This document shows positions 1,632 to 6,685 of a DNA stretch of 19,316 nt, piece after piece. The notes under the pieces are model-generated. The model did not search any database and was not told the origin of the DNA. It saw nothing but the letters and a program-made list of their open reading frames with translations. The stretch spans positions 1 through 19,316 of the forward strand of contig CAZLFZ010000024.1 in assembly GCA_964559215.1 (NCBI GenBank), read 5' to 3'. The stretch's first letter is position 1. Each line of letters starts with the position of its first letter. Source of the stretch: an uncultured archaeon (lineage in GTDB: Archaea > Aenigmatarchaeota > Aenigmatarchaeia > QMZP01 > JAFGSV01). The position numbers were made by a program, and so were the translations under genes.

Positions 1632-1757
1632 GTTATCAACTCAGTATATTATGGTCTTTAATTGTATATTAAATTTATAAATTCAAACCCTGCTTCGTAA
1701 GTTTGCAACTATAGCCATGCTAACACCCAAGGAAATCATCGGCCCAATTTTTATTTA

Positions 1758-1770
1758 TATTTTATTTATA
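1758..1770 (+). promoter_or_regulatory. TATA-like box (TTTATTTATAA) about 25-35 nt upstream of the tRNA at 1793
   Basis: An AT-rich box sits at archaeal promoter spacing upstream of the GGGGCCG tRNA 5' end. Confidence 0.3.
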
Positions 1771-1792
1771 ATCACCAATATGATAGATACAT

Positions 1793-2047
1793 GGGGCCGT
1801 GGTGTAGCTAAACCCTTTTTGCCATTGGCAGGCGGAAGGGCTCTGCAGTGGTCTAGCATCTGGGCTTAAAGCAACCCAAGGGGTCAATGCCCCTGGGGTA
1901 ATTGCCTAGCGGGTGACGTCAGGCGTCAGAAATAGTCCAAGACCTGAGTTCAATAACCTTTTCGCGCAAGTAAACGCCATAAAAACGTCAACGAAAACAC
2001 GCTGACGCAAAAATCGTGCAAAGGTTGGACGAATCTCGGCGGCCCCA
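1793..2047 (+). tRNA. multi-intron tRNA (three insertions); isotype unresolved, deduced loop UUAAAGA with anticodon AAA
   Basis: The 5' end is GGGGCCG-TG-GTGT-AGC and the 3' end is CTCGG-CGGCCCC-A. The T-stem CTGAG (1944-1948) pairs with CTCGG (2035-2039) across a 79-nt insertion (1954-2032) inside the T-loop, which splices to TTCAA+AT = TTCAAAT. There is a ~40-nt structured insertion in the D-loop (1809-1848) and a ~62-nt insertion in the anticodon loop (1872-1933), between stem TGGGC (1861-1865) and GUCCA (1935-1939). The exon lengths sum to ~74 nt. Confidence 0.5.
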
Positions 2048-2093
2048 TTCCATATTTATATTAATTTTTCATACAATACATCACCCCCAAAAC

Positions 2094-2283
2094 GGGGCCG
2101 TAGTGTAGCTTGGTCTATCACTCGAGACTGGGGGTCTCGTAACCGGAGTTCAATAAGCTTTTTGCCCAAGTAAACGGCGGGAGCAAGTTCCTTGTTTCCG
2201 CTCATGCGTAAACGGATAAAAACAATAAGGAAAAGTCCGCTGACGCAAAATGCGAGGAGCTTGGACGAATCTCCGCGGCCCCA
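2094..2283 (+). tRNA. tRNA-Pro(GGG) with a 115-nt intron in the T-loop (2154-2268)
   Basis: The gene reads GGGGCCG-TA-GTG-TAGCTTGGTCTAT-CAC-T-CGAGA-CUGGGGG-TCTCG-TAAC-CGGAG-TTCAA[intron]AT-CTCCG-CGGCCCC-A. The anticodon is GGG with G37. T-stem CGGAG/CTCCG is compensatory relative to CTGAG/CTCGG in the neighbouring tRNA. The intron is homologous to the T-loop intron of the tRNA at 1793. Confidence 0.7.
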
Positions 2284-5495: not shown

Positions 5496-6452
5496 ATGAA
5501 ACTAAAAACTCTTGTCAAAAAGAAAAGGGATACACAATATTTCCTTTTTGGAGGAAAGGGCGGCGTTGGAAAGACGTCCCTGGCCGCAGCCGCAGCCCTG
5601 CATTTGTCCAAGGCCGGCTCGAAGGTCCTGCTCATTTCCACAGACCCCGCTCACTCGTTGTCGGATTCCTTCGAGACGAAAATCGGAGGGAAAGCCAAAA
5701 AGCTGAGCAAGAACCTGTTCGCTGTGGAGATAGAACCGAAATTAGCGATGCAGGAGTACAAGGCTCGGTTCATGCCGCAAATAGAGAAGGTAGAATACCT
5801 GCAGGGCCTTGGACTGGGAGACACGTTCGATATGATGGGAATGACCCCCGGCATAGACGAGATAGCCGCCATAGACAAATTCCTGCATTACATACAGTCA
5901 CCAGATTACGATGCGATGATATTCGACACGGCCCCGACAGGGCACACCCTGAGGTTTCTCTCCCTGCCCGACGTACTGGATTCATGGGTCGGCAAGATGA
6001 TAATGCTCAGGATGAGGCTGTCGGGAGTAACGAACCTTGTCAAGCGCTTCCTGCCTTTCGCGCAGGAAGATGAAAAAACAGACTCCGGACTTGAGCAGTT
6101 GCAGGCCATGAGAGCCAGAATAGCGCAAGCGAAAAAGATACTATCCAATCCAGACAAAACGCACTACAATCTGGTCATGATTCCCGAAGAGATGAGCATA
6201 CTCGAATCCGAGAGGTCCCTGGCTGTTCTGAGGCAGTACGGGATTCCGGTGCATGACATCATAGTGAACCAAATAATACCCAAAAATGTGCACTGCCCGT
6301 TCTGTAGCGAAAAGAGAAAACAGCAGCTTGTTCGGCTTAAAAGCATACGGAAAAAGTTCAGGGGATTCCCCATCCGGGAAGTCCAAATGTACAGGAAAGA
6401 GGTGAAGGGGTTCAAAATGCTGGAGACGGTCGGAAAAGAGATATTCCTATGA
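5496..6452 (+). CDS. ArsA/Get3-family P-loop ATPase (possible archaeal Get3 homologue)
   Basis: It has a deviant Walker A (GGKGGVGKTS), the switch/ArsA signature DTAPTGHTLRFL, and a CPFC pair near the C-terminus, like the Get3 Zn-binding CxxC. The gene lies 18 bp downstream of GGGPS on the same strand. Confidence 0.8.
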   Translation: MKLKTLVKKKRDTQYFLFGGKGGVGKTSLAAAAALHLSKAGSKVLLISTDPAHSLSDSFETKIGGKAKKLSKNLFAVEIEPKLAMQEYKARFMPQIEKVEYLQGLGLGDTFDMMGMTPGIDEIAAIDKFLHYIQSPDYDAMIFDTAPTGHTLRFLSLPDVLDSWVGKMIMLRMRLSGVTNLVKRFLPFAQEDEKTDSGLEQLQAMRARIAQAKKILSNPDKTHYNLVMIPEEMSILESERSLAVLRQYGIPVHDIIVNQIIPKNVHCPFCSEKRKQQLVRLKSIRKKFRGFPIREVQMYRKEVKGFKMLETVGKEIFL

Positions 6453-6685
6453 TGTCCGGTATCTCTGAACATTTCGTTTCCGAATAATGGATGTCTCCAA
6501 ATAACGATTTGCCCGAATAATGACGCTTTTACGCCTTACCAGTCTACACTAGTAGAGGCCCCACGGGTGGGAAAAATATCACTAAAGATAAATAGCAGCC
6601 CTGGATAAAATAGTTAACTATGCGGAGTGGAGATAACTTTAAATACCGCTTATACCTTCTATGTAGGATTGCAGTCCGATTTTCG

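Follow-up and report, generated by a model that had tools for sequence, protein, structure and literature searches.

What are the two interrupted, tRNA-like units that lie in tandem on contig CAZLFZ010000024.1 of an uncultured archaeon, and how could working tRNAs be obtained from them? The window considered here is the whole 19,316-nucleotide (nt) stretch of that contig, and a reading of its sequence finds the same pair of ends twice, GGGGCCG on the 5' side and CGGCCCCA on the 3' side, at 1793-2047 and 2094-2283; within both units, GAGTTCAA is followed by an insertion and then by ATCTC(G/C)G. The first unit (gene 1) is a tRNA-Pro(CGG) gene with four introns and a 4-nt micro-exon, CGGG, and the second (gene 2) is a tRNA-Pro(GGG) gene with one 115-nt intron. 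Very probably, the two are functional and independently promoted genes of an Aenigmarchaeota-like archaeon, interrupted by protein-spliced introns of the bulge-helix-bulge (BHB) type that are copies of one family.

The original prediction for this locus, made from the sequence alone, had placed the introns in a Thermoproteales-like context. This did not hold up: judged by its gene homologues, the host is an Aenigmarchaeota-like DPANN archaeon. The gene content of the region is archaeal (GGGP synthase PcrB, MC1 and Hjc), and the neighbouring ArsA gene has homologues at 96%, 80%, 79% and 76% identity on syntenic contigs, with many homologues at 76% identity and below being named Candidatus Aenigmarchaeota. 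The contig corresponds to JGI 3300031651 Ga0315543_1001517 and recurs in independent assemblies.

Structure of the two tRNA-Pro genes

ARAGORN made no tRNA call on the raw window, Rfam was silent between 1700 and 2400 even at E <= 10, and the single Rfam match to the raw window was a tRNA on the minus strand at 2-185. An Asn(att) call, obtained from ARAGORN at lowered thresholds, was spurious. Once 2154-2268 is excised, ARAGORN recognises the second unit as a 75-nt tRNA-Pro(GGG), and excision of all four introns from the first unit gives Pro(cgg); removal of the T-loop insertion alone from gene 1 yielded no tRNA. In both genes, a canonical cloverleaf is restored upon excision, as in the archaeal BHB tRNA introns. 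A tRNA finder had been proposed as a check on the locus. It fails on the unspliced sequence and succeeds on the spliced one, where ARAGORN agrees with the sequence reading on two tRNA genes that start with GGGGCCG and share a 3' end.

The structure of gene 1 is fixed by a relative. In L011, the contig whose ArsA is 80% identical, the syntenic site is occupied by an intronless 75-nt tRNA-Pro(CGG) gene (5803-5877), and the five exons of gene 1 (1793-1809, 1849-1867, 1910-1913, 1934-1953 and 2033-2047), when joined, are identical to it at 75/75 positions. The four-intron structure follows from this identity to an intronless syntenic orthologue, and chance is excluded as its source for the same reason. 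The coordinates originally given for the T-loop introns, 1954-2032 and 2154-2268, are exactly those needed for the spliced tRNA-Pro products, up to a 1-nt slide of the T-loop junction (57/58 or 58/59) that exists because an A flanks both junctions. T-loop introns are thus present in both genes as claimed, but the single intron attributed to gene 1 is in fact one of four, those in the D-loop, at 33/34 and at 37/38 having been missed together with the 4-nt micro-exon. The compensatory change claimed for the T-stem is real: at pair 50:64, gene 1 has U-G (CTGAG/CTCGG) where gene 2 has G-C (CGGAG/CTCCG), with both sides changed and pairing retained.

The relatives differ in the introns of the same genes. 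Pro(CGG) has no intron in L011, one in L014 (D-loop), two in L112 (D-loop and T-loop) and four in both the window and L007, the contig whose ArsA is 96% identical, and Pro(GGG) has its T-loop intron in all of the orthologues recovered (window, L007, L011 and L014). Between the window and L007, 150 of the 150 exon bases of both genes are identical, while the introns diverge. Intron 1 differs by a 47-nt insertion or deletion (indel) and 4 substitutions, such that the 39-nt window intron matches the 86-nt intron of L007 at 35/39 positions around a 47-nt gap, and intron 2 and the gene 2 intron each differ by 4 substitutions and an indel. As far as sequence comparison can tell, this pattern of presence, absence and substitution agrees with functional genes whose introns turn over rapidly rather than with pseudogenes.

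Table 1. Positions in the window of the two tRNA-Pro genes, their exons and introns, the putative promoters and the tRNA-Tyr introns; BHB, bulge-helix-bulge motif.
Feature	Position	Strand	Basis
tRNA-Pro(CGG) gene (gene 1), 5 exons and 4 introns, no encoded CCA	1793..2047	+	exons 75/75 identical to intronless L011 5803-5877; ARAGORN
Gene 1 exon 1, positions 1-17: acceptor 5' strand, D-stem 5' strand, D-loop start	1793..1809	+	intronless orthologue
Gene 1 intron 1, 39 nt, D-loop after U17	1810..1848	+	junction uniquely fixed by intronless orthologue
Gene 1 exon 2, D-loop 3' part to U33	1849..1867	+	intronless orthologue
Gene 1 intron 2, 42 nt, U33/C34	1868..1909	+	BHB pairing, orthologue
Gene 1 exon 3, 4-nt micro-exon CGGG (anticodon C34 G35 G36 and G37)	1910..1913	+	orthologue
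Gene 1 intron 3, 20 nt, canonical 37/38	1914..1933	+	BHB once intron 2 is gone
Gene 1 exon 4, A38 to A58	1934..1953	+	orthologue
Gene 1 intron 4, 79 nt, T-loop 58/59, core CGCTGACGCA at 2000-2009	1954..2032	+	BHB; nhmmer E = 1e-10
Gene 1 exon 5, A59 to discriminator A73	2033..2047	+	orthologue
tRNA-Pro(GGG) gene (gene 2), 2 exons and 1 intron	2094..2283	+	ARAGORN after splicing; orthologues in L007, L011, L014
Gene 2 exon 1, positions 1-58	2094..2153	+	ARAGORN after splicing
Gene 2 T-loop intron, 115 nt, 58/59, core CGCTGACGCA at 2238-2247	2154..2268	+	BHB; aligns with intron 4; nhmmer
Gene 2 exon 2, A59 to A73	2269..2283	+	ARAGORN after splicing
TATA-like A/T-rich stretch, putative promoter, ~21-43 nt 5' of gene 1	1750..1772	+	sequence reading
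TATA-like stretch ATATTTATATTAAT, putative promoter, ~29-42 nt 5' of gene 2	2052..2065	+	sequence reading
tRNA-Tyr intron, 44 nt, U35/A36, helix H GGCT/GGCT	149-106	-	
tRNA-Tyr 2-nt micro-exon AG	105-104	-	
tRNA-Tyr intron, 66 nt, 37/38	103-38	-	

Several minor features accompany the genes. In the gene 2 intron, at about 2159-2163, a T5 run (AAGCTTTTTGC) resembles an archaeal oligo-T termination signal inside a tRNA gene, and T4-T5 is found at the equivalent place in most copies of the intron family. A 97-amino-acid open reading frame (ORF) at 2150-2443 on the minus strand, overlapping the gene 2 intron and exon 2, is almost certainly spurious; in L014, a similar 76-amino-acid gene has been called between the tRNA genes. 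In L011, a gene for a 218-amino-acid methyltransferase (5904-6560) lies between both Pro tRNA genes, with a called end that reaches into the first 10 nt of tRNA-Pro(GGG).

Splice-site motifs and the implied order of removal

The BHB geometry used in our scan consists of a 4-base-pair (bp) helix H that is followed on its 3' side by a 3-nt bulge in each strand, the cut falling behind the second base of the bulge; the helices on either side are denoted h and h'. It had been suggested that the junctions be searched for a BHB or relaxed fold, and a BHB-type motif is indeed found, relaxed on its 3' side in the T-loop introns. In intron 1, H is GTAG/CTGC (4/4 pairs) and the bulges are CT↓A and AG↓T, where the arrow marks the cut. 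In intron 2, H is GGGC/GCCT (4/4), the bulges are TT↓A and AG↓C, h has 5 bp, and the outer helix draws on the micro-exon together with the start of intron 3. Intron 4 and the gene 2 intron have the same H, GTTC/GGAC (4/4), and the same 3-nt 5' bulge, AA↓T; the 3' bulge of intron 4 is GA↓A. Helix h' is longer in the gene 2 intron (11 bp) than in intron 4 (7 bp) and covaries between the genes (AACCT/AGGTT versus AAGCT/AGCTT).

In the primary transcript, no motif is available to intron 3. Only once intron 2 is gone can an H of TTCG/AGAA (3/4) and an h' of GACGT/GCGTC form, with the anticodon stem TGGGC/GTCCA serving as helix h. The motif of intron 3 thus needs the prior loss of intron 2, which implies an ordered removal; such an order has been described for closely spaced introns in the tRNAscan-SE 2.0 paper.

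According to the explanation that we favour, the precursors would fold such that every splice site lies in a 3-nt bulge beside a 4-bp helix, in which four bases of the 5' exon pair with four located close to the 3' end of the intron. EndA, the splicing endonuclease, in this case of the broad-specificity type, would cleave after the second bulge base on both strands, and the exons would be joined by an RtcB-type ligase. Gene 1 would undergo four excisions, with intron 2 (33/34) leaving before the motif of intron 3 (37/38) could form. Since helix h is weak in the D-loop and T-loop introns (1-3 bp), their motifs represent the relaxed form, and relaxed BHB motifs are cut only by broad-specificity endonucleases. 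DPANN variants of EndA with an L3 loop have been associated with disrupted tRNA genes (PMC5829648).

Pairing was counted in 11 of the 15 BHB mini-substrates, namely those that aligned gap-free, since MAFFT broke the register in 4/15. In the BHB register, helix H of these 11 junctions is 97.7% paired, with both-sided changes at 4/4 pairs, and h' and h are 90.9% and 70.9% paired, respectively. Overall pairing reaches 86.4% compared with 62.9 +/- 2.5% in shuffles (0/500 reach the observed value) and 39-59% in slid controls, in a test that overstates independence because the BHB rule guided the choice of some junctions and several of the rows come from orthologues. This overstatement is one of several points that weigh against our explanation. 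In the T-loop introns, the 3' half is relaxed: h is just 2-3 bp long, and its register is in competition with the normal T-stem. Furthermore, the minimum-energy fold favours a slightly different pairing. RNAalifold returned no consensus structure for the intron interior from 12 family copies, and no EndA or RtcB gene is found in the window, nor EndA in the loci of the relatives as annotated. Splicing itself and the mature tRNAs are what we infer from the sequence.

Other readings of gene 1 were rejected. A perfect BHB motif can occur by chance, and the top rank in the scan went to an hBHBh' intron at 1805-1848 with a textbook motif, which is ruled out by the orthologue, as it sets the 5' junction at 1809/1810. 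The CGG orthologue likewise rules out a tRNA-Leu(UAA) with a long variable arm, as well as alternative 3' splice sites that would give GGG or UGG anticodons (site 1894, H GGGC/GCCC); by manual count, the alternative-anticodon route includes a second excision with just 2/4 H pairs.

Could both units instead be pseudogenes, disrupted by small repeats that resemble miniature inverted-repeat transposable elements (MITEs) and left unspliced, with functional copies elsewhere? In its favour, family-like elements are not confined to RNA genes, since L088 and L116 have them between convergent ORFs in either orientation; duplicated tRNA ends of 19-20 nt flank two copies, and the T5 run in the gene 2 intron could terminate archaeal transcription. 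Nevertheless, we consider this scenario highly improbable. All exons are intact and identical to those of the intronless orthologue and of the 96% relative, even though the introns have diverged, and each gene has retained a putative TATA-like promoter of its own. Moreover, at exactly the place that the BHB register requires, all insertions are complementary to the upstream exon over 4 bp, for which the probability by chance is ~(6/16)^4, or ~2% per site, by our own estimate with G-U pairs allowed.

An intron family shared between RNA genes

The T-loop introns of the two genes had been described as homologous insertions at the same position, and they are: their mean column identity is 80%, with the internal insertion or duplication of ~37 nt in the gene 2 intron set aside, and the conserved blocks quoted for both are present. 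The sequence CGCTGACGCA occurs exactly twice in the window, both times in a T-loop intron. The family core takes the form ..GGAAAA-N2-3-CGCTGACGCA..., also written as AAAAGCGTTTACGGAAAA, and its A-rich conserved part is CAAAAGCGTTTACGGAAAAT, often followed by ACGCTGACGCA. The ends of the family are inverted repeats, (A)ACCCTTTT...AAAAGGGT(T) or TAAGCTTTTT...AAAAAGCTTA, which pair in nearly all copies according to RNAfold; this is a property of MITEs, yet the same ends serve as BHB helix h' and therefore do not discriminate. Of the 6 nt in the 3' tail, the first four can pair with the exon at the bases located 3-6 nt before the 5' splice site. A CTTTT/CAAAA hairpin folds in 12/15 copies, with stem sequences that differ between copies and loops that MAFFT misaligns. 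Intron 1 of the window is an internally deleted copy of the family, the 86-nt version in L007 having the core ..GGAAAATCCGCTGACGCA... The T-loop introns of both genes and the D-loop intron of gene 1 are copies of one family, which would have been copied between RNA genes within the lineage.

The core also contains CUGA, which is D-box-like and might point to carriers of guide RNA (C/D-box small RNA, cf. the euryarchaeal tRNA-Trp intron). We give hardly any credence to this reading or to self-splicing group I/II introns. The insertions, at 20-115 nt, fall far below the size of a ribozyme core (more than 100 nt of conserved core) and have no Rfam match at E <= 10. The T-loop introns have CUGA alone, without an RUGAUGA C box, and in five copies read manually neither a k-turn nor a consistent partner strand stands beside CUGA (CUGA-CGC).

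Further members of this family of presumed BHB introns are found elsewhere. Upstream of the window on the same contig (L001), a tRNA read as Lys(UUU) has a family intron in its T-loop. A pattern scan of metagenomes returned genuine copies among noise. The family is found there, for instance, in the T-loop of a tRNA-Tyr orthologue and of another tRNA, in the D-loop of a tRNA read as Pro(UGG), and in type-II tRNAs, both in the variable region and as short copies in the T-loop. A hidden Markov model of the family recovers the copies of the pattern scan, a T-loop copy in the Pro(CGG) of another organism and some weaker ones that lie between convergent ORFs. The transposed tRNA intron groups are defined by highly similar introns that recur in several tRNA genes of one genome or lineage, often at the same position, and introns of this kind are present here. 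The copying of introns between tRNA genes that the original prediction had proposed gains support, since the family is also found in further tRNA genes, including at different positions. A scan for the core pattern in one genome per GTDB species gave just bacterial chance matches, the exact core being absent from those representatives, and three scans of viral collections gave chance matches, L135 excepted.

The family also extends to rRNA. Two family introns, of 64 and 67 nt, interrupt an archaeal small-subunit rRNA gene in L124 (SMTZ1_10027595; Rfam 820 bits) and L125. These 16S introns sit after GGGGTAAAA and after GATTAGAT, with perfect H helices (GTAA/TTAC and TTAG/CTAA) in the same BHB register and with 3-nt bulges. 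BHB processing of pre-rRNA is documented, and BHB introns in archaeal rRNA genes form a class represented by the 16S and 23S introns of Thermoproteales. The L124 insertions resemble this class in their perfect 4-bp H and 3-nt bulges, but differ from it in being short (64-67 nt), ORF-free and homologous to tRNA introns.

The likeness of the two T-loop introns could also stem from the tandem duplication of an intron-bearing Pro gene followed by precise loss in the relatives, without any transfer between genes. The acceptor stem, D-loop and T-loop are common to both Pro genes, the T-loop intron is present in all Pro(GGG) orthologues and must therefore be old, and the Pro(CGG) of L112, which is more distantly related, likewise carries a T-loop intron of the family. 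We regard this alternative as unlikely, however, because the Pro(CGG) genes of L011 and L014 are without a T-loop intron, and because duplication cannot account for family members in 16S rRNA, or in tRNA genes that are unrelated or interrupted at different positions. In addition, the T-loop introns of the window are ~88% identical to each other over aligned columns, whereas the Pro(GGG) intron is ~77% identical to its L011 orthologue, which suggests recent copying or gene conversion between the neighbouring Pro genes.

Some copies of the family lie outside RNA genes. In L088 (1700-2000) and L116 (6390-6640), three or four diverged family cores and hairpin-only derivatives (TAAGCTTTTAGGAAAAGCTTA) are located in both orientations between two convergent ORFs, and Rfam gave no match to these element clusters. 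A 19-nt stretch (ACGAnAATGGGCCCGTAGC) occurs on both sides of a family-like element in L112 (8140-8270); this stretch consists of the leader and the first 11 nt of a tRNA read as Lys(UUU), and the arrangement resembles a long target duplication. L135 (IMGVR_UViG_3300009285_002298) is a head-tailed-virus-like contig with Terminase_6C and Gp10-like coat ORFs; at 700-890, it has a tRNA gene followed by TTTTTT, an antisense family element and a repeat of the last 20 nt of the tRNA.

The intergenic copies and hairpin derivatives in both orientations, together with the 19-nt repeat of L112 and the 20-nt repeat of L135, favour mobility at the DNA level. The likeness to MITEs is considerable, as the family is short, non-coding and repeated, has inverted-repeat ends and includes the hairpin-only derivatives and the intergenic copies just described. 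The differences are that no regular target-site duplication of constant length is seen across the copies (two have 19-20-nt duplications, in L112 and L135, and one nested insertion has a 2-nt ambiguity), and that all RNA-gene copies have a tail tailored to the exon, which is not expected of a cut-and-paste element; both argue against a simple element of that kind. It is conceivable, though we advance it only tentatively, that the T-loop introns are a small mobile element moving at the DNA level and possibly carried between hosts by viruses. Its inverted-repeat ends would double as the BHB closing helix, and the host endonuclease would excise it harmlessly from structured RNA genes that offer a suitable upstream tetranucleotide. 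If this is true, the 'intron gain' of archaeal tRNA and rRNA genes would be the visible and tolerated part of ordinary repeat-element insertion, and filled versus empty sites in close populations would allow the transposition mechanism of BHB introns to be studied directly.

Comparison with known systems and other split RNA genes

With two functional tRNA-Pro genes and protein-spliced BHB introns as our preferred explanation, the locus is a new lineage for a known kind of event, namely shared tRNA introns and intron transposition. In Thermoproteales, similar introns in different tRNA genes have been ascribed to 'large-scale intron transposition' (Sugahara 2008; Fujishima 2010; as related in the reviews PMC4033280 and PMC4090602), the mechanism of which is stated to be unknown. 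As outlined in those reviews, the Thermoproteales system resembles ours in having protein-spliced introns in the D-loop, anticodon region and T-loop, with several per gene, near-identical introns at the same position of different tRNA genes, and relaxed BHB motifs that need a broad-specificity EndA. It differs in its host, which is a crenarchaeon and not a DPANN archaeon, and in the number of introns per gene, which is given as at most three in PMC4033280 and PMC4090602 compared with four in gene 1. In addition, the family described here is also present in a 16S rRNA gene, intergenic DNA and a viral contig.

Three introns per tRNA gene is the archaeal maximum given by the tRNAscan-SE 2.0 paper and the reviews. 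For the Asgard Atabeyarchaeia and Freyarchaeia, however, Supplementary Data 4 of PMC11291895 (2024) has most tRNA genes interrupted and some with four introns, as in gene 1, the Freyarchaeia examples being Arg-TCT and Ile2-CAT. Four introns are thus rare but not new. These archaea belong to another superphylum, and a shared intron family or rRNA copies are not described in the passages of PMC11291895 consulted here. In the red alga Cyanidioschyzon merolae, nuclear tRNA genes have ectopic BHB introns, four of them in the T-loop and <=3 per gene, and ordered intron removal has been demonstrated experimentally (PMC3728597). Ectopic T-loop BHB introns and ordered removal are the points of likeness, but the alga is a eukaryote, and a homologous intron family has not been reported for it. 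Among open-access papers, we found none on tRNA introns in Aenigmarchaeota or on BHB introns shared by tRNA and rRNA in DPANN.

The tRNA-Pro genes are not the only split genes on the contig. At 2-185 of the window (minus strand), Rfam gives a tRNA with a single 113-nt insert, and ARAGORN on L001 gives tRNA-Asn(GTT) with one 110-nt intron; the gene is tRNA-Tyr(GUA) (C1:G72) with two introns (Table 1). Its orthologues in L011, L014 and L112 have no 35/36 intron, L112 having a family intron in the T-loop instead, and the 37/38 intron is conserved in four genomes. Because the tools miss or misname tRNAs here, tRNA-Pro, and perhaps further tRNAs, will appear to be absent from genomes of this lineage. 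A gap of seemingly absent tRNA genes has been raised for DPANN genomes by Kaneta et al.

A Pro(CGG) gene with 0, 1 or 4 introns among relatives at 79-96% ArsA identity, together with a single family in tRNA, 16S, intergenic and viral DNA, provides an unusually clean series of BHB intron gain and loss. The micro-exons of 4 nt and 2 nt and the implied order of removal make these genes demanding substrates, which could be used to probe the specificity of the DPANN splicing endonuclease.

A few further observations concern the other RNA genes of the contig. In the tRNA-Tyr 37/38 intron (103-38, minus strand), GTGATGA and TATGAG resemble C and C' boxes; there is no clear D box, and the boxes are not kept in L014. 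Two more split tRNA genes that were missed by the tools lie at 1296-1806 of L001 (minus strand). On L001, a tRNA read as Asp(GTC) has a 37/38 intron and a T-loop intron, and a 286-nt gene read as tRNA-Lys(UUU) has insertions in the D-arm, two near the anticodon and the family intron in the T-loop, the last of which its L014 orthologue lacks. Finally, where L014 and L112 have a terminal TTCG loop, the 5S rRNA gene at L001 1872-2029 (minus strand; about 3.3 kb upstream of the window start) carries a 48-nt insertion (GGAAAGCTGGACGGCCTGCAATGATGGATGCAAGCCGTTACATGGCCTG), which could be an intron or an expansion.

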